Positions 24,201 through 61,600 of a stretch of DNA of 64,000 nt are shown here, piece after piece. Source of the DNA: Podarcis bocagei (lineage: Eukaryota); assembly GCA_964188305.1 (NCBI GenBank), contig OZ076885.1. The stretch is one strand, 5' to 3'. The notes below the pieces were generated by a model that was given only the letters and a program-made list of their open reading frames with translations, searched no databases and was not told the DNA's origin. Made by a program: the position numbers and the translations under genes. Every line of letters begins with the position of its first letter. The stretch's first letter is position 1.

Positions 24201-24836
24201 ATGCCTGTTCAGCAACAGCAAGGCCATAAGAATTACCCCTGTGAAAGGCTGCATGGAGCCAATTGGGAAGCCTGGTCAAAACGCATGTATTACTGGCTGG
24301 CAGAAAAGCAACTATGGGAAAGTACACAGGCTGAAACAGGCTTTGCCCAGCCCATTAAGAAGTTTACAGGCGCAGTGGAGGCTTGTGAAGGAGACGTGGC
24401 TGATGCTCTAGAGAAGCCCTGGGTAGCGTGGCAGCCACTGAAGACAGCATGTCAGGCCACAGTGGCAGCCAGACCAGAGGGGGCTGGAAGCCCAGAAGGG
24501 GCTGTGGGACGCCCAGAAAGCCCAGAGGGGGCTAGAGGATGCCCAGAAAAAGTACCAAGCCCAGAGGGGGCTGAGGCTGTTTTGGGAAGCTGTTTCTACG
24601 CTTCAATAAATCTGTGTGATGGACTGTGGGCTGGAGAGAGGCTGAGAGCTGGGAAGAGGAAGGCAGTTACAAGTTGTTCCTCAGGCAGCAGAGCACCCAG
24701 AAGTGGGGGTGCAAGCCAGGCAAGCCGTTCCAAGAGCTCTAAGAAAGCCAAAGTCTCCAAGAGTTGTTTGTGTTCTGAGGCGAAGTCCAACCGCAAAAGG
24801 CATTGCCCTGCAATTGGCAGCTGGATGCAAGGCTAA
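24201..24836 (+). CDS. 211-aa ORF resembling a Ty1/Copia gag N-terminus, with PEGA repeats, captured inside the ERV
   Basis: ERLHGANWEAWSKRMYYWLAEKQLWE resembles the Copia gag N-terminal (DUF4219-like) motif; degenerate knuckle CLCSEAKSNRKRHCP. Confidence 0.5.
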   Translation: MPVQQQQGHKNYPCERLHGANWEAWSKRMYYWLAEKQLWESTQAETGFAQPIKKFTGAVEACEGDVADALEKPWVAWQPLKTACQATVAARPEGAGSPEGAVGRPESPEGARGCPEKVPSPEGAEAVLGSCFYASINLCDGLWAGERLRAGKRKAVTSCSSGSRAPRSGGASQASRSKSSKKAKVSKSCLCSEAKSNRKRHCPAIGSWMQG

Positions 24837-24842
24837 TGTCCA

Positions 24843-26101
24843 GAAGTTGAGACATTACTGGAAGCAGTATGGGGTCCCGAAGAGATTGCCGTGATGCACT
24901 GCAAAGGCCATGGGAGAGGCCGGGACATGGTCACTAGGGGCAACCGGAAGGCAGACAACGCGGCCCGTGAAGCAGCTTTGAAACCTCCACCAGCACTCAA
25001 CGCAGCCCTCATCCCACAACTCACTCCAGACGATGTGGAACCACGCTACACACCGGAGGAGCAACAGTGGGCACGCCAGGAAGGAGTAACACTCCAGGAG
25101 GGATGGTTCCGTCTACCAGAAAACCATGTGTTTCTGCCCCAACATCTGGCTAGCGTGATTGTGAAGAATTACCACAAGTCCACTCATCTAGGGGGTCCAG
25201 CTGCCAGAGCACACCTTGGGAGACTTTTCTATATCACTAACCTTTCTCAACTAGTTGCTGCTATATCCCAGAGGTGTGTCCTGTGCGCCAAGAACACCCC
25301 CAGACAAGGCCACCTCCCTCCGCTGGGTGTACAACACGTGGGCTTCACCCCTATGGAGAGCCTGATTGTGGACTTCACTGAATTGCCTCCAGTTAGGGGT
25401 ATCAAATACCTGCTTGTGTTTGTCTTCACGCTGACGGGCTGGACAGAGGCATACCCCATTAGAACAGAGATACCTCGTGAAGTGTCCAAGAAACTGTTAC
25501 ATGAACTCATACCCCGATTTGGCCTCCCCAGAAGTATTGGCAGTGACAATGGCCCTGCCTTCATTGATAAAGTTGTACAAGAAGTGTGCAAGGCGCTGCA
25601 GATAAACTGAAGGTTACACGCAGCCTACAGACCCCAGAGTTTGGAAAAACCTGAGCGTATGAATCGCACCTTGAAGGCCCACTTGGCCAAGTTGACCCAG
25701 GAGCCGGGACTACACTGGATAGATGTCCTACCCATTGCCTTGTTTCGAATTTGGAGTGCTCCAACCAAGAAACTGATACTATCACCCTTTGCACTTTTCT
25801 ATGGCAGACCAACCCCTTTCGTCCGAGACATCCCCGCCAGTTTGGGGCGGGTGGGAGATCACATCACTCAGGAACAAGTGCAATTCCTGTCCCCGTGTGT
25901 GTTTGCTTCCCTTTCCAGGTACTACCTCGAGCCTACACCGTGCAGTCTCGCTGAGCCGGTCCACCAGTTCCAGCCGGGTGACAGCGTGGAAGCGCAACCC
26001 CCCTCATCCCTAAGTGGCGAGGCCCGTATACCGTCCTCCTCTCCATCCCAACTGCGGTGAGAGTAGCCGACGTGATTCCCTGGGTGCATCACACGCGTCT
26101 G
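24843..26101 (+). pseudogene. pol: ERV pol fragment: RNase H C-terminus and integrase (in-frame stop at 25608-25610, frameshift near 26000)
   Basis: LLEAVWGPEEIAVMHCKGH...GNRKADNAAREAA; HHCC (YHKSTHLG/CVLC); DDE (IVDFTELP, SDNGPAF, ERMNRTLK); GPY/WVHH C-terminus. Confidence 0.92.
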
Positions 26102-26233
26102 ATCATCACCTTGTGTCTGACGCTACCGGAAACGCGTTGGGCCACGGGCAACGTGATCCTGCGACTGATCATCACAAGGACTTTCACAAGGACTTTCCCC
26201 TTTTCTCTATAATGTTCTGTATTGATTTGCTCT

Positions 26234-26536
26234 ATGTCCTATTGCCCTGACCCCACCGAGCCATACCGACCCTATTGGCCTGCGGACCTCTGCTACGACT
26301 GGTTCGTCTTGCCAGTGGTAAGAAACGGCGTGCTCATTGGCTATTGGGAACAGGGCTTTGATGAGGTTGCCGTATTGAAACATCCCACTACCCCACTGTG
26401 GCTTCTCTTCCACACCACTGTCCAGCGCACATGGGTACTGCTCCTACGGGAAGTTGCAGAGACGGTCGAAATCTATCGAGTTCTGGACCGCTCTTGCTGT
26501 TGTGGGGGGGGGAACCAACTGTCACTCAGGGGGTAG
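26234..26536 (+). CDS. orphan 100-aa ORF between integrase and env (candidate retroviral accessory gene)
   Basis: ATG at 26234, uninterrupted, complex aromatic-rich sequence MSYCPDPTEPYRPYWPADLCYDWF...EIYRVLDRSCCCGGG. Confidence 0.45.
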   Translation: MSYCPDPTEPYRPYWPADLCYDWFVLPVVRNGVLIGYWEQGFDEVAVLKHPTTPLWLLFHTTVQRTWVLLLREVAETVEIYRVLDRSCCCGGGNQLSLRG

Positions 26537-27138
26537 AGCACTGTACCAACCCCATCTGGTAGACCAGGTCCTAATCTTAATCCAGGTGTTGCATGGGACG
26601 GAGCCTATCTTAATGCAAATATTGCAGGGGAGGGAGCCTGAACCAGGTGCACATTGACAAGTGCCAGTAAATCCTGCAGCCCCACCTGTGGTTGTCGTGG
26701 TGGCTCGAGCCTCCCAAAAATCCCAGAATACTGCCTGAACTACTGGGCCTGGTAACTCCACATCTAATACCCTTGAATGTGGTAGGGTATTCTTGTGGCT
26801 GCATAAGGGTTGCCACCCCAGGCTTCAGCCTCCATAGGCCCTGGTCAGAGACCACGTAGGTGACCTCCACCTAGTAGGACCAGCCTTTGAACTTTACAGA
26901 GTCTATTGCCATCCCTATAGCTCCTGAGGCCTAACAGTGTATCAGTGCCAGGCGGCCACTTTTCCCTGTGTAGAGTGGGAACGCTATGTGTGTAGACGCT
27001 GTTCACGCCTCAGTAGGGCCAGGAGTTAGAGGCCCACATGACCTGGCCTTCGTGGGCCCCCATCCCTTTGGCTTGTGGTATTTCTGTGTTGGTGGTACAG
27101 TTCTTTGTTCTGGGGCACCGAACATCCCTCGCATCAGG

Positions 27139-27545
27139 ATGTGGATCATACCCTGCCTCCTGATGGTTCTCACCTCTCAAATGGCCACAGGGTGGAAGGA
27201 AAACACCTTCCTGAATATGACAACAGCTGTAGCTAAGAGCCTGAACAGGTCTGAGTGTTACAGGCTGATTTGTACCACAAAATTAGTCTAGATGGTGCAG
27301 GTCTCCCCAGTGTATGTAGTTGAATTAGTTCTTAACTCCCAGGTTGGTCATGGTTAAAAGAGATTTTGCTTGTGATTTTACTTCTCTTCGTTATCGTATT
27401 ACTCTTATCATGCTTTTTGCCTTGCCTTATTCAGATTGTACGCCAAATGGTAAGCCGCTCAGTTAATGCAGCAACACGTACCTATATCCTGGCTCTCTAT
27501 GATATTGTACCTATAGGTCCATCAAGCGAAAATGGAGAACCGTGA
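27139..27545 (+). pseudogene. env: ERV env with a large internal deletion (signal peptide/SU start plus TM anchor and tail)
   Basis: MWIIPCLLMVLTSQMATG-WKENTFLNMTTAVAKSLNRSEC, then from 27336 LPGWSWLKEILLVILLLFVIVLLLSCFLPCLIQ...GEP*. Confidence 0.85.
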
Positions 27546-27565
27546 CCGGTCAGCATTTTCGTGAT

Positions 27566-27578
27566 GGAAAGGGGGGAA
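27566..27578 (+). promoter_or_regulatory. polypurine tract
   Basis: GGAAAGGGGGGAA immediately before the 3' LTR. Confidence 0.9.
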
Positions 27579-28312
27579 TGGAGGGGTGAAGGTCAGGATG
27601 ACCAATGGAGAGCCAGGCTAAGAATCTCTGAAGCCATATTATAGAGCCATCTAAAAGCTAAAAGCACAAAGCCATTTTAGAAAGCAAAAGACTATTTCTC
27701 TTTCTCATGTTTGTCACTTTGCCACCTTTTGCAGAGGCAGCAAGCATGCAAGCTTGTGGGTGCAGCTAGCTTGCCCCTGCAGGAAGTTTGCCAGTTGAGG
27801 TTAAGCCATTTCTGAGAAACGACCCCTGACAAAGGCAAGTAGCAGGATGTTTGCTGACCGCCAGGCTCCAGATATAACGCTTAGGTGTGAAGTTGCTAAA
27901 CCACAAGGACATTTCTTGGAAGCGGGGGGTTCAGGGGCACTTCCTGGAACTAGTAAAGAGGTTAAGTAGATTATAAGCCAGTAGCGCCACCTAGTGGAAT
28001 AGGCAACTTGGAACCGAAAGGCCACCACCAAATTTATTCATTGGTTGAGCTTTAATGAATATGTATCAATGACCATAGGAAATTGTCAATCATTGGCTAA
28101 AGGGATGCCAAGGGGCTGAACTATGCTTTGCAGAAAGGTATATAAGTTAACTGCCCCTAAGGAGGGGTGGGCATTTTCTCTCATTTTGGCAGCTGAATGC
28201 ACCCCTTTGCTTTGCTTGTCTGACAAATAAACCAAAGTCAATAAAACTTTTGTAATTAAAATATTGCTGCCTGGATTTTTCCATTCTGGTCTGTATTCTG
28301 AAGTCTCTAACA
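27579..28312 (+). repeat. ERV 3' LTR
   Basis: Direct repeat of 21303-22036, no difference seen by eye; preceded by the PPT. Confidence 0.95.
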
Positions 28313-28316
28313 ATAT

Positions 28317-40605: not shown

Positions 40606-43600
40606 ATTTTTACCTTTTGAAATGGCTTCCTCAGCTTGCTCATATTCCTGCAATGTACTGTAGAGATTTGCCTTGTTAAAATATATTGCTGCCGAGAAAG
40701 GAGAGAGGCAAATTGCCTGCTCAAAATCTGCTTTTGCTTCTTCAAATTTCTTTAACAGTGTATTTGTAATAGCTCGATTTAGGAATGCAGATTCATTTGT
40801 TGGATCAAGCATCAGTGCCTTGGAATAATAGTTATTTGCCTGAAAAAATAAATAAAATGTATATGCATTTTGAAATTGCTTATTACTTTTGTTTTATAAA
40901 ATCACTAACAACAACATGAGAAATGAATGAAGAATTTTGTTTTAGGGAAGCCTGGTTGTATTCCAGTCTAGATGTTTTCTCCTGTAATTGCCCAATTTGC
41001 TCATTCATTCAGACAAACATTATTCCAAACAATTGTATTTTGTTGTTTTCTCCCCCATCCCATTTTTTTCAGTTGTTGATTTACTGCAAAACTTTATTGT
41101 TGTTGTTTATTAAATTTCTATACTGCCCTTCAGCCAAAGATCACAGGTCGGTTTACAATATAAAACACAAAAATGTGTAACATACTAACAAACAGAAACC
41201 ATGCCCCAGAAACCATACCCCCTACACTTCAAACTTCCACTACAGCTGCAGAATAGTAGTATCAGGTGTGAACTGACTGCAGTACTATTGCTTCACCTGG
41301 GGCAAAGGAATAGTCTGTTTGATCCGAGCCAGGACTACTGCCAATAACAGAACTGTATTTTATACAGCGGTACCTCGGGTTACATACGCTTCAGGTTACA
41401 GACTGCTTACCCAGAAATATTACCTCGGGTTAAGAACTTTGCTTCATGATGAGAACAGAAATTGTGCAGTGGCGGCAGAAGGCCTCATTAGCTAAAGTGG
41501 TGCTTCAGGTTAAGAACAGTTTTAGGTTAAGAACAGACCTCCAGAACGAATTAAGTTCTTAACCCAAGGTACCACTGTATTGCTTTTGATATGTTCTTAA
41601 AATTATTTCACATGTGGTCATTTTGTAAAAGGTTTTTGCAGTATATCACTTCAAAACTGCTTAAATGTGAAGCAATTAATAAATTCAAAAAGCAAACAAA
41701 TAATCCATTGGCAGTACTTTTGATGACAAAAAATAATTATTATTCCTTTTCAGCAGTGAACTTTTCTGGACTTCCAGAAAAACACATAAAGGACTATCAG
41801 TTTCACCTGCTGCATCTATATCAATGCTGACGTGCACAAATTGCCTTTTTGGAGAAGGAAAGTCAACAGTAACAAGGGTGGTAAGCAGTAGACCGTATGA
41901 ATGCTGGAAAGGGCTGCCTTTCCTTCTAAAGACTGCCTTCCCCTTTGCATGGGGATTATATAATACATAAACATTACTGAACAAGGTTGGTCCTACAATA
42001 ATGCTTGCAAAAATGCATTGCTATCTACAATGCATTCTGATATATTTGGTTATTAAGTTATTCAGTGGATCAAAAATTTGCTCAAATTCTCATGATTTTT
42101 CGGAAATTTAAAATGCAGAACAGTAAAGAACATTTCATAAGACTTTCTGATAACTAGCATTCTATTTGTCCCACGCTTTATTACAAAGTTATACATTAGA
42201 GTACCATTATCAGATGTCATTTCTAACTTGAAAGACGCTAATTATAGCTACAGAAGTAGAGTATATTAATTTAATATCTGGGAATGGCCTTTTTTGTCAC
42301 AAAAACAGCTAGTTCGGGAATGCAAAATTTTAAGTACTGTGTAATAAAAAGGTAAAGGTACTCCTGACTGTAAGGTCCAGTCGCAAACGACTCTGGAGTT
42401 GCAGCGCTCATCTCGCTTTATTGGCCGAGGGAGCCGGCATACAGCTTCCGGGTCATGTGGCCAGCATGACAAAGCCGCTTCTGGCAAACCAGAGCATCGC
42501 ACAGAAACGCCATTTACCTTCCCGCCGCAGCGGTACCTATTTATCTACTTGCACTTTGACGTGCTTTCGAACTGCTAGGTGTGCAGGAGCTGGGACCGAA
42601 CAACGGGAGCTCACCCTGTCGCAGGGATTTGAACTGCCGACCTTCCGATCAGCAAGCCCTAGGCTCTGTGGTTTAGACCACAGGGCCACCTGCATCCCTA
42701 AGTACTGTGTACATAAATCCCAGTGCGTGGTATGAACACATCCAAGCAGATACACGATCCTGCAGCCTTGCATTTGCTAGTTCCTCCTACGCTTGCTGTT
42801 GCTATTGGTGTTGTTGACAGATCAGTAGACAGAGCACTGCTGTAGGGCAAGCAACTGCCCAGTACCCCACAGTACTGCAATATGGGGGAAGTGCATTAGA
42901 GTCTAGCAAAGTTCTCCCTTCTGCCTCCACCCCAAAACTTGTACAGAGTGACCTTTCCAGTCAGCCTGGAAAATCAGGATGTGAGTCACCCGCCCTTGAG
43001 CTTTAAGACAAAAATGCTTTTTAAGGATTGTGCTAAAAAATCATCTACTAACTGAAATCATGCAAGCAAACTATTCCAAAGAAAAGAGTTCAGGAAAATT
43101 AGCGTGCACAGAATCAAATACAGACCTGTGAAAACTGCCTGTTGTTAAAGTAGATATTTGCTGCATTGAAATATGCCAAAGCATAGCTGGGGTCAATGGA
43201 GATAGCTTGCTGATAATCTTTCATGGCACAGTTTAAATATCCCATAAACTGGTTAATGACACCTCGATTAGTAAGCAGCTCTGCACTTGTAGTTACCTGA
43301 AATATAGTCAACATAAATAAAATTGTAGGAATAGAACTCATAAAGGACATGGTTGTTAGAAATAGACAGTAATATCTTGATCTTGACAGTTACCTTCAAA
43401 TTATGATATAAAAGCGGAGATGTTAATATACAGCAGCAGAGCAGATATATTGTCAGGGAAGATAAAAAAATTCCTTCCAGTAGCACCTTAAAGACCAACT
43501 AAGTTAGTTCTTGGTATGAGCTTTCGTGTTGGTCTTTAAGGTGCTACTGGAAGGAATTTTTTTATTTTGACTATGGCAGACCAACACAGCTACCTATCTA

Positions 43601-52600: not shown

Positions 52601-55600
52601 AGAATGACCATCACCTATTGCCTGCTTGTAGTGGCATGTGTCTCAAAAAAATCAAAGCAGATTTTTGTCTGATCCAGCAATGCAATTCTTTTGGGAAAAG
52701 CACCCTGAGATTTTCAGGGATTGGACAGATGAAAGGAGCAGAAGTTTATAAGCTTCACAGGGCTCTTTTCTTTTAAAGTATTACCTCACCTATATTAGCT
52801 CATACTGTCTCCCTAAAACAGTTACCAATGTAACTGTTATAGTTATAGTTATAGTTATTTTTAAAACAAACAAACCAACAAACACTTATGTCCACTTTCA
52901 TGACACGAAAGTGTGCTATTTCTTACAAGTGGCAATTATTATTAAACTATGGGAGGAATTCAACATTGTACTCATGTGATTGTTATGTCAGAGCAAGCAT
53001 TTTGGCTTGGCAAAGGAACAATCCCCCTCTCCTCCTGCCCCCCGTGCACTGTTTTGGGGATTCCACCCCCCAAAAAATGAACCAATTTCAGGGGAACAAG
53101 CAGCAGGGGTGGGGACTTGTTGTGCAAGGGGAAACTGGGCTTCTATTGACATTGAATCCCACCCTATATTTCAAGAATATGTTCATTTAAGGCTGATTAC
53201 TACATTGGTGTGTTAATCATAAGTTTTCGATTCTTCTTTAAAATGAGCAGCAGTGTACTCAAAACATCTGTCTTTACCTGCAAAAGGCAGCATACTTCAT
53301 CACAAAAAACATAAGGCAACATTTTTACCCTGTTATAAAACTTCAGTGCTCCTCTAGAAAGATAGGCTCTCACGCTAGTAGGCTGAATTCTGAGGGCTTC
53401 ATTGCAATTCATTATTCCCTTGGAGAATCTTCCTTTGCATCCATAGTAAGCAGCACGGCTTAAATATGCCTTTACAAAAGCATTACAGGGGGAAAAACAA
53501 ATACATTTTAGAAGGAAACAAACACCAACAGGCCCAGTACCAGACATTATGCTGCCTGAGATGGCTAGTAATTCTGCTGCTGCTCAGTCTTCTTTATGGT
53601 GCTAGTAAAGCAAACATCCTCCTCTTTCACCCTGCCATCTCCTCATTCCTGCTCCTCCTGTTACCTCACTTTATTTGTTTCTTTGTTTTCTTTTCCTAGA
53701 AGTTTTTCCACTCACCTAGCTCTGAGAAAGACCCAAGGGGGGATCTTCAGAGTGAAGTCCTCTGGGTGAGGTGGCCTGGGTTACAAATAACTTTTAAGAT
53801 TTCTAAATTTAAAACAGCATTTCGGGTTCCAGTGACAAACTACAGCAGCAGTTTAGGCAACCTTCTGGTTACCTTGTCCAGAAGGCCTCACTCTGCAGAA
53901 GGACCCCCTTTTGCATGAGTACCTGGCAAGAGATGTTAAACAGGAATGTAACAGAGGCCTCTAGAAAACTCCTTGCATGCTAATGAATGCTTCTTACTAT
54001 ATAGACACAGAATGCCTACACAGAGGTGTATGTGTTTGGATAGGCAGTGGCGTAGCGTGGGTTGTCAGCACCCGGGGCAAGGCAAGTAATTTGCGCCCCC
54101 TAACCCGTGGATTTGCGCCCCCTAACCTGTGGATTTGCGCCCCCTAACCCTAACCCCCAGATGTTGCGCCCGGTGTGGCCGGCCCCCCCTGCACCCCCAC
54201 ACTATGCCACTGTGGATAGGTAGGGGTGTGGCTAAATGAGCAGGCCTGAAAATTCAGCCCACACCATTGGCCCTGGTATACCACGAAGTAAATTTAATGA
54301 AGACGAACTAGAATCAACTTTTCCAGGGATTTGCAATCTACTATTTTTATTGCTCAGGGACGCGGGTGGCGCTGTGGGTTAAACCACAGAGCCTAGGACT
54401 TGCCGATCAGAAGGTCGGCGGTTCAAATCCCCATGACGGGGTGAGCTCCCGTTGCTCAGTCCCTGCTCCTGCCAACCTAGCAGTTCAAAAGCACGTCAAA
54501 GTGCAAGTAGATAAATAGGTACCGCTCCGGAGGGAAGGTAAACGGTGTTTCCGTGCGCTGCTCTGGTTCGCCAGAAGCGGCTTAGTCATGCTGGCCACAT
54601 GACCCAGAAACTGTACGCCAGCTCCCTTGGCCAATAAAGCGAGATGAGCGCCGCAATCCCACAGTTGGCCACGACTGGACCTAATGGTCAGGGGTCCCTT
54701 TACCTTATTTTTATTGCTAAATGTAGAACATTGAGATAAGATAAGCTCTATTTCAGTATCTCCAAAAATCAAATTTTCAGCATTACCTGAAAATGGTCTG
54801 GTTGAACAGCAAGTGTTTTGTTAAAATCTAATATGCACTTAGGTTGATGGAGCTGCATTCTGCAAAGCCCTCGCTGATAGTATGCATCTGCATAACGTGG
54901 ATATAGCTTGACAGCAGAAGTAAAAGCGTCACAGGCCTAAAAATACAATAAAGTTAGTATTACTAAATACTGCCCTTTGTCTAGACTATATTGTCAAGAA
55001 TATAAAACGTTTACCGCTTTAGGACTTTGTACTGCATGAAATTAGGCAAATGATACCAGTTATGGAGGGATAAATTCCAATGTTTAAATAGGCCTCACAT
55101 TCTGAAAATAGGTTTTAACACTCTTCAAGAGGCCCAGACAGTATCTGTTGTTATATGAGGTAGTAAATAGGACCATTTTTTAGATATTACCAAATTGGCC
55201 ACATATTAACAAAACAGAAGTTTAATGTCTTATTAAGACTTCTAATTGTTATTATCTATCCCAGACAAGACCATTTACTGCCTAATTTTTTCATATTGAC
55301 CCAGTTTGACTATGCTGTAACTGTGATGCTTAGATTAGTTTTTAGTTGCTGGTTTGCTAATGGTGCTATACATATTGTTATTGTTTTACTGATGATTTGT
55401 TAATTTATATAATATGACTTATGTCATACCTGGGATGTATTATTATGTTATTGTTATTTATTGTCTTTGAGCCTCTTTCAGATACGTTTTAATGGAAAGA
55501 GGAATAGAAAATCTAATTAATCAAATCTATCCAATTTGGCCATTTTGTTTACTGCACTTAAATGAACAAGAATATTATCAGCTGTTTGGACATATAATTT

Positions 55601-58600
55601 TAATTCCAATTTAAGGAAATCACTCAACAAACCTTCTTGTTATGGTATGAGGTGAGTGGCCACAAAGAGGGTGGGCGGCTTACTCTTGACAAGCCCTCTT
55701 GATCAAAATATATGCTCTATATTTTTTAGAGAAGTTAGTTACATTGATCAAAGTGAACCATGTCCTGCTGTACCCAGCGCAGGTTTTCACAAGGAGCATA
55801 GTAGAAGTGATCAGTATTTTGTTTTGAACTCTCTTATTCATATAAAACATTTAAAGTTAATTTTCTATAGTATATCAAGGGGGCAGGGGGACATAACATA
55901 TTGAGGAAACACAGACACTTAACTAAATTCTTCAGCACTCATCCCAACAATTTTGCTATGAAAATGCAATGCCAATGAAAAAGAAGGAGGTGATGGTTCA
56001 AATACCAGAATTTACTCTCATAGAGACAGTAAGGTTTTGCCCTCCCATTCTGGCTCCTGTTCAGCCACTGCCACCTTCAGCTCAGACATCTCCTGTGGGT
56101 TGTTAATGCCCTCTTCAGTCCCCAATAAGGCTCTCTGCTCTGCAGGATGGATAGGAAATGGGAGAACCTCCATCCCCAGTTCCTATTATTCACACACCCC
56201 TTCTGCTTCTGCCTCGTCCTCATCAGTCTGAACTTGCCAATCCATGTCTGATCCCAATGGAACCATGGGGTTCAAGACAGAAAATCACTGCAGGGTATTA
56301 TTAATCATGGCAAGTCACAGAGGGGAATTAATTAAAATAATCAATTATGACAATCACAAAGGGGAATGAATCGTAGACAATTATTGAAGGAATTTGAAGG
56401 AATTTAAGAACCAACTGAACGCAGAATCAATTAATATCAATCACACAAACTAGCAAAAGGAATAAAAAAATGTAGACAACCACAGAATTAATTAAGCTTG
56501 TGACACTGGAACAGCCAAGGGAAGATTCCACTTGCCACAAAGATTAGACACACAAAACTAGCTACAGAGACAGAAAAATACAGAGAAATAATTGAGAGAA
56601 TGAATAAAAGGATCCTGAGCACACAGAGCAGAAAACAGAGAAAAGTACAAACCTGAACAACAAAGAAATGCAGAAAGAATTGCTAAGCTATTGCCAGAAA
56701 CAAAAGACAGGAACTTCACTGGGGTTTCTTCTGGGAACAGGCTGCTTAGAAGTTCCTGAGACACAACTGCATTCTTGTCTTCAAGCATTAGAAGTTCAAG
56801 AGTGCCAGCATGGGAGAAGAACAGTGGCAAATTGATAATCCTGTAATCCTAAACATTTGTTGCTTTACCAGATGATGTACTATTGTTATTAATTTATTTA
56901 TTATAAAAATGAATCCCCTACCTATACATATACTAAGCTGATAATAGCTAAAAACATTATTGCAATAGAAGTATAATTGCAACCCATCAATAGCTTGGCT
57001 GGTTGATTAAATATATTCCAGGAATTCAACATGGCGCTAAGGAAAATTATCTTCCCTCTCCTACCCTCACACATTGTTCTGGGAGATCGGCTGACCCTCC
57101 AAAACAGATCTGAGGGAGGTGCACAGGGGAGAGGAGAGGAAGGAAAGCCCTGTTGTGCCAAAGGGAGTCCTTGCATTGGCTTCTCCTCACAGAACGGGGT
57201 AGCTAAATCTTGCCCTTAGTCTCTGTGCCTAGGGTGACACTATCCTAAGAGGTGTGACTGAAGTGCTACTGCCCAATTGGAATAGCCCTGAGGTACCAGC
57301 AGGAGTCTGACCAAACTGCGGGAGGCGGTGAAAGACAGGAGTGCCTGGCGTGCTCTGGTCCATGGAGTCACAAAGCATCGGACACGACTAAACAACTAAA
57401 CAACAACAATCCCCTTCCCTTCAAATTACTTTGTCTGACATGCCTAAGCAAAATTTAACACAGTTTTGGACTTTCAACAAACCACTGAAGAGTATCCCAA
57501 CGCTCAAGTCTTTAACTCATTTCAACTCCACAATCAAAACTTTTGTGTACAATGTTTAAAACCAAAATGCCATAACACTTAAGAAATATGTACCTCTAAT
57601 AAGGAGACTTGCTCCATATAGCACTGGCCCATAAAAAAATATATTTCTGCAGCTTCAAATGTACTAGGTGTAGATCTTGTAGCGGCAGTATCCATCAGCC
57701 GCTTCAATGCTTGTTTAAAACTGGCTACAGCATCCTGTAATAAAAAGTAAGTGTAAAATATAGTTAACTGATGTTTGCAATCCCAGTCCTGAGAGTGATC
57801 GTGCTGCTCAGTTTGCTCAATGGTGAATCAGTCACCCTTTTGAATAACAAAGTGGCCTCCATCTTTTTTTCACCGCAGATATATTTACTTTGTTTTTTTA
57901 AAAAAACAAAGTAAATACCCAACCCTATAGATTCTACACATATGTTTACAATTCTATGCACACTTACTTGGGAGTAAGTTCTATTGAAATCATTAGTTAC
58001 TTCTGAGTAGACATGCATAGGTTTGCTACATTCTTACATATTGTACGTACTGCGGCAAAGAAGACCATGTAATACAGCTCTTTTTTTGGCACCAGGGAAA
58101 GAGGATCTAAGGTTATCCCAGTAATGAAAGCTGGACAGAAATACAAACTTAATGAGTTGAATACATAGCCAGAAAGACTGATTTAGTTGCAGCCAATTGA
58201 CATGTGTCATGGACTAGGCTGTCCAGTTAAAAGAAACAATCCATTTTTACTTCTGCACAGCAAGTAATGATCTAAAACTTGGCCTGCTTTCATCTGGCAC
58301 CTTGAATCCAAAGAGTAATTGCCATTATTTTTCCACATATTTATCAAGTAGGCCCTGGTAAATGTAATCTTCCCAAGTACTGGTGACACCTGAAGTAGCA
58401 CATGGGAAGATTCCATTTTTGAGGGTTTACTTTGGCTTCACAGAACACCAGATATCAGAGAAGCATGGCTTGCTGCCATGGCCAGAGTTAGAGAGGCATC
58501 ATTAACCTCCAAATAGGGTGGAAGGGACGCAGGTGGTGCTGTGGGTTAAACCACAGAGCCTAGGGCTTGCCGATCAGAAGGTCAGCGGTTCGAATCCCCA

Positions 58601-61600
58601 TGATGGAGTGAGCTCCCATTCCTTGGTCCCTGCTCCTGCCAACCTAGCAGTTCGAAAGCACATCAAAGTGCAAGTAGATAAATAGGTACTGCTCCGGTGG
58701 GAAGGTAAACAGCGTTTCCGTGCGCTGCTCTGGTTTGCCAGAAGCGGCTTAGTCATGCTGGCCACATGACCCGGAAGCTGTCTGCGGACAAACACTGGCT
58801 CCCTCGGCCAGTAAAGCGAGATGAGCGCCGCAATCCCAGAGTCATCCGTGACTGGACCTAGCGGTCAGGGGTCCCTTTACCTTTAGGGTGGAAGAGGGTA
58901 TGGGGAAGGCTAGGGGAGATGAGGATAAAAAGGAGAAATTTTCTCTAGTTCAGATTAAAGTCCAAGACAGATAAAAATATAGGGATCATACACAGAGGCC
59001 AGTGAGATTAAATGAGCTCTTGACAAATTAACTATTGAGTGGCAAAGACAGCAGGAAAGAATGGACAACCAGCAGGATGCTGTGTCCCAGCAGAAAATAG
59101 CAAGGAGGAATAGAGATTTAATAAGAAATGAAATAGTCACCAGAACCCATGCAGAATTCTATCAGCCTCACATATTTTCCCTATAGCTTTCAAAAATAGT
59201 TCCCTTCAAAACCGCAGAAATACAAGAGCATATCTTTAACCTTATATTTTTTGGCTTTCATTTGGATTTTTCCAAGTAGAACAAACATGGCACAATCAGG
59301 TTGGTTTTCGGAGGCTGCAAGTGCACACACAATGGCCTTGTTGTGATTCTGACAAAATGACTGAACAAGTGCTTCTTGAACAAGCGAACATTCAAGGGGT
59401 CCTGTAAAATATTGAAGGACAACTTCATTCTGGGCCAACCTATTTATTATTGTGCATTTCAATGTATAAATACAGATATCATAAGAGACAGGCAAGCTTC
59501 ATAGCCAATGTTAATATAAATGTTCAGAATGCCAAAGACTCGTATTAAACTTCTGTTAAAGCACTCGGCATTCAGAGAATACCAGAGTGATGTACAGAAA
59601 CCAAATATAAAGCATAATACAGCAGTGGTTCCCAATTAGCTTATTACTAGTTCTGCATGCTCAACGAGACTTTGAGCTTATATTTCTTAGACAGCCATCA
59701 TACCATTTTATGCCAACAGGGCTTTGCAGCTACTTAATTTTCAATTTTTATTTAGCTAGCCACCTTAACAATTATCTGTATTTTTGTCGTTTTAATGGTG
59801 CATTCATTGTGTTTTAACATTGTGCACCGTCCTGATATTTTGTGATATGGTGGTATAAAACTACTTTTATTTTTAAAAATGTCAGACCATTTTGAACTTG
59901 AGGGGACTCCCCCCCCCCCAACCAAAAAAACACAACTGTGATAGGGTATGAGGGTTTGCTGTTCAAGAAAAGTTCCAGGTGCCCCTGGGCATGCTTCAAG
60001 TAATCCTTTGGACCTGGGCCATAGCTTCACAGTGCACAGAAAGGTAAAACATAGACAGACAGTACCTTGACCCATTTCTGCAACTTGGTGTATGCAGAAA
60101 CTTGCAAGATCATAATTCTGCATCTCTAGTAGATACTGTCCTCTGTAAATGAAGTATTTTAACATACATTAATTGCTTGGAATTTCTATGGAACTATTTA
60201 TTTGTTTTCAAATAGCAACAGAATAACAACAAAGATTTAAATATTTGAGTAAATAAAATTACAGAATATTATCAACTCTTCATTGGCTATACATTCAGCA
60301 ACCTTTTTTAAAAAAAATATTTATACTTTTCAGATATATACAGTTCATTTCGACATTTTAAAACTTGACTTCCTTCCCCCTTTTTGTGCGGTTCCTTAAA
60401 TTTATTTTTACTATCTTCTGCATATGCAAATTAACTTAACGTGCTCATTTATTTATCTTCTTTACATATATATTCTTATATAGCTTCAGGTTATTACAAT
60501 AATCCTGCCAGTGTTTTTATCTGTTTACAATTTACATGTAAATATTCAATAAACCATTTCCATTCTTTTATAAAAAGTTTTATATATTGAGTTCTTATTC
60601 TTCCAATAAGTTTTGCCATTTCTGCATATTCCATAAGTTTTTGTATCCATTCTTCCTTTGCTGGGACTTCTTTTTCCCATTTTTGGGCAAGTAACATTCT
60701 TGCCACTGTAGTCGCGTACAAAAATAAATTTCTATACAATTTAGGTAGTTCTATCCCTATGAATCCCAGAAGAAAGGCTTCTGGGTTTTTCCACAAACAT
60801 TATTTTAAACATCCTTTTCATTTCATTATATATCATTTCCCAGTAAGCCTTAACCTTACTACAAGACCACCACATATTAAAAAAGAACACCATTCAGCAA
60901 CCTTTGCATCATCCCTAATAAAATACCTAAAATATATCTACTAGGAATAAAATGTGCTAATTCACAATATTTATACCCACTCTCTATCTTTATTGACCCT
61001 CAGGGCAAGTTACATAAATAAAATAAATATTAAAATATCCAAAAGAAGCAAATAAAGGACAAATCAATGGACCAAATATATGTAACATAACAGCCTGGAA
61101 AAATAGCTCTTGAGCTGATACTAGAAGTAAAATATTCCATCAGATTCTGACAATCCCACTAATTTGTTTTTAATTTAGGCAAATTTCATTTAGTCAAATA
61201 ACGCCCTAAGAAATTCTATTTATTTATTTATTCAGTTATGCACTGAAGAATCTCAACTATTAAGCCCACTTTAATTAGAGTAGCATTCTTGATGAAAGAA
61301 TAATATTCATCCAGCACTAAAAGACCTAAAAACTAAATTTAAAAGGATACAAACTACTTTGGTAGACCACACATCTGAAATCATAGTGAGGACCTATGAA
61401 GCAGCTGAGTTGTATGCTGCCTTCAAATATGAGTCAATGAAGCCTGAACTTCAGGGCTAATGGAGGGAAGTTGAGTTCAGTCCTCCATCTCCTTCAGAGC
61501 TGAAGCCATTGCAGAAGGTTCTCTTGGGCTGACAGAATGGAATGCAGTGCTCCAGCTTCCATGATGACTTCACAGTCAAAGCAAGGAATTTACAAGGACC

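Follow-up and report, generated by a model that had tools for sequence, protein, structure and literature searches.

Our analysis of sequence indicates that the 100-codon, ATG-started open reading frame (ORF) at 26234-26536 of the window (the whole 64,000-nucleotide stretch of Podarcis bocagei DNA that was analysed) is a 3'-damaged allele of a retroviral gene, which we call A, rather than an intact gene. In full-length relatives A lies between pol and env, either alone (family 2) or at the head of a tandem array of four ORFs, named A to D (family 3). By their sequence, both families are gamma-like class I endogenous retroviruses. The gene order, the open frames in young copies, the selection on A, B and C, the paralogy of A and C, the depletion of ATG across the cassette and the exchange of A between families are the parts of this account in which our confidence is high. 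We also have considerable confidence in the overall reading, in which the window ORF is a damaged A from the head of a four-gene pol-env set, with leaky scanning and host antagonism as the likely mode of expression and role; the individual steps are graded below.

Gamma-like retroviruses are the textbook "simple" retroviruses, and accessory genes between pol and env mark the lentiviruses. If true, four ORFs of this kind in a young gamma-like lineage would mean that this genome plan arose twice. The cassette contributes at least two protein families (A/C and B) for which the libraries searched gave no match. Host restriction factors are usually found by way of accessory proteins, and A/C and B would point towards reptile antiviral defences, of which little is known. 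The ATG-depleted cassette would also allow five-cistron leaky scanning to be tested directly in an animal virus.

The window provirus and its relatives

The ORF sits in a 7.0-kb provirus (21303-28312, plus strand, as are all its parts) flanked on both sides by an ATAT target duplication (21299-21302 and 28313-28316). The 734-bp 5' LTR at 21303-22036, whose last 4 bases were placed from the sequence beyond the LTR comparison, and the 3' LTR at 27579-28312 are identical at all 730 bases compared, so the insertion is very young. After the 5' LTR comes a primer-binding-site-like stretch (22041-22061) that we take to be of tRNA-His type, the same motif following the LTR in family-3 copies, and then a leader splice donor at 22277-22283 (exon end 22277, GT at 22278) that is shared with an element we call L113. 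Remnants of gag occupy 22653-24201, with the start of MA at 22653-22802 and p30 at 23863-24201; they are 84% and 81% identical to family-3 Gag by tblastn, with a match to Pfam Gag_p30. The A-rich insert of about 1 kb that separates them (22803-23862) is unrelated to either full-length family; it is common to L113-type elements at 93% and is covered by sense-strand RNA reads. An ORF at 24201-24836 begins with a stretch (24201-24420) that gives a weak Pfam match to DUF4219 (E 0.13) and looks like the beginning of a Gag protein of Copia type; it may be a fragment of a foreign retroelement within the deleted pol region. What is left of pol is broken and comprises the end of RNase H and integrase (24840-26101; 85-89% identical by tblastn to residues 756-1179 of family-3 Pol, with a match to Pfam rve), protease and reverse transcriptase being absent. 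Elsewhere in the window, the repeats at 5096-6839, 9993-10292, 13621-14152, 41361-42662 and 54353-58891 look to us like squamate SINEs.

The gap of about 1 kb between pol and env, to which the first-pass annotation drew attention, is genuine: homology to integrase extends no further than 26101, and that to env sets in at 27133-27139. That annotation saw one intact ORF in the gap and took it for a relic accessory gene. An ATG-started ORF of 100 codons is indeed present and its first 90 or so codons are conserved, but "intact" was wrong, since the frame of longer forms is left at a run of G at 26504-26512. The 3' part of those longer forms lies in another frame at 26505-26660 (tblastn places A residues 91-119 at 26505-26591, the remainder following from translation). 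Nor is A alone, as the remaining gap holds the debris of three further genes: the 5' part of a broken B (26670-26860; 82% by tblastn at 26716-26829 and 85% to family 3 as DNA), the 3' part of a broken C, which contains a stop and has been brought up against B by a deletion (26856-27030; 77% to residues 80-122 of a database protein, P0006), and a broken D that overlaps the start of env (27038-27245; 62% by tblastn at 27072-27245). The env remnant itself (27139-27542) fuses the signal peptide and the start of SU to the end of TM, with tblastn matches to residues 1-43 and 374-467 of family-3 Env, and is followed by the polypurine tract (27566-27578).

Judged from these parts, the window element is a non-autonomous, deleted and recombinant derivative of family 3. 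Identity to family 3 in DNA is 81-93% across integrase, B, C, D and env, whereas its A is 88-89% identical to family 2 and only 74-75% to family 3, which argues that A came from elsewhere by recombination. Having neither reverse transcriptase nor most of env, and with the tail of A out of frame, this copy is probably a passenger. Moreover, a 12-codon ORF in another frame (26212-26250), absent from full-length family 3, overlaps the start of A, and since its ATG has an A at -3 while the A start is weak, the window copy probably makes little A protein.

How well is A preserved in the genome at large? A protein search of the window's genome gave 233 candidates, of which the 150 best-scoring, a sample hence biased towards intact copies, were scored; 68 were 96-100% and 82 were 77-81% identical to the window's A. 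A stop within the 90-codon core was found in just three of these 150 best-scoring matches. The core is open in all 30 loci near-identical to the window, with ORFs of 87-141 aa (140 or 141 aa in 14 of the 30), the variation at the 3' end arising at the G-run; in the 77-81% group, 17 of 20 loci carry an ATG-started ORF of 135 aa. The description of the ORF as a relic fails for the family, in which young copies with identical LTRs keep A open. Relatives were also found in other public assemblies (A 59-79%, C 53-70% identity).

Several observations on these copies stand apart. L113 is a mosaic non-autonomous element with a 5' part like that of the window subfamily, its own 120-aa A, a piece of B and family-2-like pieces, and several parasitic non-autonomous families of its kind retain A while losing pol and env. 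One locus of subfamily 1 (L081, oriented 3370-3867) differs from the window copy in a region with a 166-codon open frame of coiled-coil-like composition. Some loci lie in pairs about 6 kb apart (L012/L013, L130 and others, for example G000:C12:57491487 with 57497048); these tandem proviral copies possibly share an LTR or are assembly duplications.

The cassette in full-length families

Family 2, in which gag and pol are followed by A (135 aa) and then by env, was seen in 8 of 40 fetched loci. Family 3 came to light when 1.84 billion proteins were searched with a profile, which gave four matches, all A- or C-like. The weakest of them, P0006 (E 1.9e-10), has a C-terminal part that matches the window at 26874-27002 (77%), and a search of the window's genome with P0006 gave eight loci with a full 130-aa C frame. 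In these loci, A, B, C and D, of 126, 138, 130 and 73 aa respectively, follow one another head to tail from pol to env, B beginning directly at the stop of A and D overlapping the start of env. D is full in all eight loci, B in seven and A in five (it is frameshifted in two and cut in one); gag and pol matches lie upstream of the cassette in seven. Where both LTRs are in view, in five loci, their overlaps are 99.5-100% identical. In the full-length families pol has its own stop 140-180 nt upstream of the A ATG (about 140 nt in family 2). Between families 2 and 3, identity is 61% for Pol, 42% for Gag, 31% for Env and 52% for A. The primer-binding sites after the 5' LTR differ between the two full-length families (L067 and L128), and are by our reading Gly-like and His-like, respectively, yet gene A is common to both.

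Sequence comparison indicates that A, B and C are under purifying selection between families and gives no such sign for D. We compared the observed substitutions with the same substitutions placed at random same-base sites, a null that ignores CpG context. Over the first 88 codons of A, amino-acid changes were fewer than random in five of seven pairs (P <= 0.005; the other two, at P 0.13 and 0.33, were not significant), and they were more conservative than random in six (P <= 0.0003; 0.014 in the seventh), these seven pairs sharing lineages. B gave P < 0.001 in three of four comparisons and 0.018 in the fourth; C gave 0.003 and 0.013 in the two full-length comparisons, and 0.086 when only the 51 codons present in the window were compared. 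D gave no signal (P 0.24-0.76), so that its status as a gene depends on its intact frame, its start and its hydrophobic helix. Other tests were less decisive. Nei-Gojobori ratios were 0.23-0.62 in nine pairs, with similar values from some stop-filled alternative frames; a codon-model comparison in IQ-TREE of 26 copies from subfamilies 1 and 2 did not reach significance (lnL -1379.0 vs -1380.7) and is not counted as support; and selection within the window subfamily did not reach significance (20 synonymous and 23 non-synonymous changes and 1 stop, P 0.06). Taken between families, conservation and selection uphold the accessory-gene interpretation of the ORF, A being a conserved and separate gene between pol and env.

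By its sequence, C is a paralogue of A. The two are 36% identical over 89 aa, the HMM match stands at E 1.9e-10 among the 1.84 billion proteins, and 13 columns are invariant in an alignment of 18 A and C sequences. The first-pass annotation recognised no homologue of the ORF, and beyond this pair our Pfam, PDB and profile searches gave no known homologue of A either. None of A, B, C and D had a significant match in Pfam, PHROGs or PDB sequences; at E <= 1 Pfam gave no family for any of the four, and at E <= 10 the members of the A alignment gave one unrelated family. The ESM Atlas gave no usable match for the window ORF or the 135-aa form, a blank that shows neither novelty nor absence, and of 33 pattern matches in an IMG/VR scan none was confirmed. 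AlphaFold models were poor (pLDDT 50 for A from 12 sequences and 52 for C from 18), though they suggest a beta-meander core with C-terminal helices in both, and fold searches with these low-confidence models by Foldseek and VIA gave nothing above background (best Z 2.8 and 4.2). A likeness of the W-rich strand motif of A to TCL1/MTCP1 gained no support in the searches and was dropped.

Hydropathy indicates that A, B and C are soluble, while D of family 3 has one strong hydrophobic segment, a single transmembrane helix. A has a Cys cluster followed by a helix of the form L-x3-A/V-x3-hydrophobic, the helix being out of frame in the window copy; to us these recall, weakly, the zinc site and BC-box of Vif. 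In C, residues C, H and C-x2-C are conserved, and the forms from family 3 and P0006 end in a stretch rich in Arg and Ser. The env frame of family 2 (L067, oriented 7081-7300) opens with a Trp-rich hydrophobic segment about 35 aa before the signal peptide. Its first hydrophobic segment shares 6 of 22 residues with D (E 0.008 in a single comparison), which is suggestive only: the leader is possibly a D-like protein fused to Env, or else a long functional leader.

Expression and function

How might four small genes be expressed upstream of env? In family 3, the 1780 nt from the integrase acceptor to the env start contain 5 ATGs where 19.3 are expected, a depletion reached in none of 1000 shuffles; four other loci that were tested are depleted as well (0-2 of 1000 shuffles), and gag, pol, env and the antisense strand show no ATG depletion. 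Four of the five ATGs open the frames A to D and each has T or C at -3, whereas the env start has A at -3. The same six ATG positions recur in six of the seven readable family-3 loci, one locus differing in one position (the survey of ATGs and acceptors covers family-3 loci other than L165, L168 and L169). ATG depletion together with weak starts for A to D is what leaky scanning predicts, and HIV-1 vpu and env are translated in this way, according to PMC2657110.

The RNA evidence comes from four raw-read runs that were matched by species label, so the organism may not be the window's species. Sense-strand reads were found across the window-type family. Two reads in each of runs X18 and X19 (four in total) join 22279 to 25942 across 31 intervening letters. 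These 31 letters are the start of the second exon in L113-type copies, which identifies the joint as GT-AG splicing between the leader donor and an acceptor in integrase at 25897-25919 (intron end 25918), homologous to that of L113. After this splice the ATG of A comes first in sister and L113-type copies. Three bulk runs cover the A region of L113 1.6- to 10-fold on the sense strand; among joints with at least three reads aligned to L113, this splice did not appear. A leader-to-integrase splice that makes A the first ORF is therefore weakly shown. Spliced leader transcripts had been proposed to enter at about 26.2 kb; the reads, though few, place the acceptor instead at 25918|25919. A pyrimidine tract does exist at about 26191-26211, as had been noted, within an AG-free stretch that extends to 26233, but it cannot serve A as a splice acceptor, since no AG lies between it and the ATG (the nearest are at 26177 and 26189, and the next only at 26259). 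In several full-length copies an acceptor-like CAG does follow the tract, at +11 inside A.

We propose that one spliced env-type RNA, running from the leader donor to the integrase acceptor, would carry A, B, C, D and env, and that scanning ribosomes would arrive at the strong start of env after passing over the weak ones of A to D, reinitiating where the stop of A meets the start of B. Leaky scanning with A/B reinitiation up to env is, we believe, somewhat better than an even bet. The strongest competitor retains the same genes and supposes HIV-style alternative splicing, in which the leader donor joins several acceptors and leaky scanning serves only D and env. Acceptor-like sites do precede each family-3 ORF, at about -459, +11, +614 and +1100 from the A ATG, and all four are found in five of seven readable loci (L128 has three and in another they are shifted by a few bases). 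Their number is what chance provides, with 3.7 expected and four reached in 248 of 500 shuffles, and their placement, one per interval, has P 0.07. Nor does alternative splicing need the 5' half of B and the 5' two thirds of C to be free of ATG, yet both are, and the reads on the window element and L113 show none of the joints it calls for. We would give such splicing somewhat less than a one-in-three chance.

For function, we propose that A and its paralogue C may be small adaptors that disable antiviral factors of the host, much as Vif and Vpr do. This role is tentative, suggested as it is by position, size, fast evolution, duplication and swapping, of which the last, the movement of A between viruses with unrelated LTRs, fits a host target. 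The alternative that A and C are viral regulators (a Tat- or Rev/Rem-like transactivator or RNA-export factor) draws on the conserved C, H and C-x2-C residues and the Arg/Ser-rich end of C, and an RNA with many ORFs would presumably gain from export control. The basic tail, however, is absent from P0016 and from all A proteins, and for a gene that has moved between viruses whose LTRs are unrelated and whose primer sites differ, a host target is more plausible than a cognate viral cis element; we consider a regulatory role unlikely, somewhat more so than antagonism of the host. We are more doubtful that the virus took up A from a host or foreign gene and kept it, even though the window element holds other foreign-looking inserts and gene capture between pol and env, of KIT ligand in CrocERV29, is documented in crocodilian viruses (PMC4299795). 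The four proteins returned from 1.84 billion representatives are all A/C-like, in a library that may lack lizard proteomes, and the loci fetched from the window's genome, among the best 150 of 233 candidates that were scored, are all proviral or partly so.

Finally, the ORF could be a non-coding spacer, or an extension of the integrase C-terminus, that stays open only through the youth of its copies. An ATG-started ORF of at least 100 aa arose in 121 of 1000 dinucleotide shuffles of 26101-27138 (12%), so the window ORF by itself is not beyond chance, and in 16 of 20 subfamily-1 loci, 8 of them picked for long open frames, the A frame is continuous with upstream sequence, often an integrase remnant; but this run-on stems from deletions in a subfamily that is defective and does not occur in the full-length families, where pol stops before A, for which reason the extension was rejected, and a spacer would not be expected to show selection, paralogy and ATG depletion, which makes this the least credible reading by far.

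Returning to the scanning and host-antagonist account, and taking all its elements together, we arrive at a recently active lizard gamma-like lineage that, independently of lentiviruses, would have acquired a new and duplicated family A/C, an unrelated B and a Vpu-like D, a five-cistron env RNA and an anti-restriction gene A that is portable between distant viruses. As a complete scheme this is a possibility, though less likely than not, and of those elements a Vpu-like membrane role for D is also among the uncertain ones, with the odds rather against it.

Comparison with known systems

The polymerase of these viruses comes closest to that of murine leukaemia virus (MLV). RT-RNase H scores 784 bits to MLV/XMRV-type structures against 162 for foamy virus and 81 for the next retroviral polymerase, in a structure list that held no epsilonretrovirus chain for comparison. 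As in MLV, gag and pol of families 2 and 3 share one frame with a single TAG between them, Gag has p15 and p30 with a single CCHC zinc knuckle, integrase ends in an MLV-type C-terminus (MLVIN_C), env matches Pfam TLV_coat (E 2.6e-10 and 1.9e-20), the target duplication of the window provirus is 4 bp (ATAT) and the acceptor lies within integrase. The env motifs that we read by eye, CXXC, an immunosuppressive domain and CX6CC, are those of what we take to be a gamma-type Env. Unlike a simple gammaretrovirus, which has gag, pol and env only, the last two abutting or overlapping, family 3 has four further ORFs in 1.5 kb and family 2 has one. Gamma-related class I elements of anamniotes have the typical gammaretrovirus structure, as described in bioRxiv 10.1101/2021.11.23.469661, and the accessible texts of PMC12690878, PMC9723728, PMC8922424 and PMC5388530 describe no such cassette. 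More generally, the literature searched, which lay outside subscription journals, repeat databases and supplements, describes none in a gamma-like virus, though such elements could appear uncommented in the table of some survey.

Two other groups of endogenous retroviruses carry extra sequence at this position. In the reptile element CrocERV29 a KIT-ligand ORF lies between pol and env and the viral genes are kept (PMC4299795); it differs in that a single host mRNA was captured, whereas here there are four ORFs for which no host homologue was found. The teleost foamy-like elements DrFV-2, PpERV-1 and AcERV have orphan ORFs between pol and env that are under purifying selection and match no domain (PMC5210030), a likeness to the present cassette that we draw from their description only. 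According to the same text they differ in being spuma-like and of class III, in having ORFs of 1.3 kb (DrFV-2 and PpERV-1) and more ORFs after env, and in that no transmembrane accessory protein was found in them, unlike D here.

The likeness to lentiviruses lies in the small ORFs between pol and env, and the first-pass annotation was right to place the ORF where vif and vpr lie; kinship with them is another matter, as the virus is gamma-like and homology was not detected. D in particular resembles the HIV-1 vpu/env arrangement: it is short, encodes a membrane protein with a single helix, starts weakly and overlaps env. In lentiviruses vpr and vpx form a duplicated pair, with which A and C may be compared. 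Unlike lentiviruses, the polymerase is of class I rather than class II, A, B, C and D have no Pfam or PDB sequence match to lentiviral accessory proteins, and, in contrast to the lentiviral central region, the ORFs run head to tail without overlapping and the whole cassette is depleted of ATG. For translation, the closest parallel is perhaps the leaky scanning of badnaviruses and rice tungro bacilliform virus, in which tandem small ORFs with weak starts precede a major ORF and no other AUG comes before it. These are plant pararetroviruses that translate an unspliced pregenomic RNA into unrelated proteins, whereas the cassette described here would be read from a spliced env-type RNA of an animal virus.
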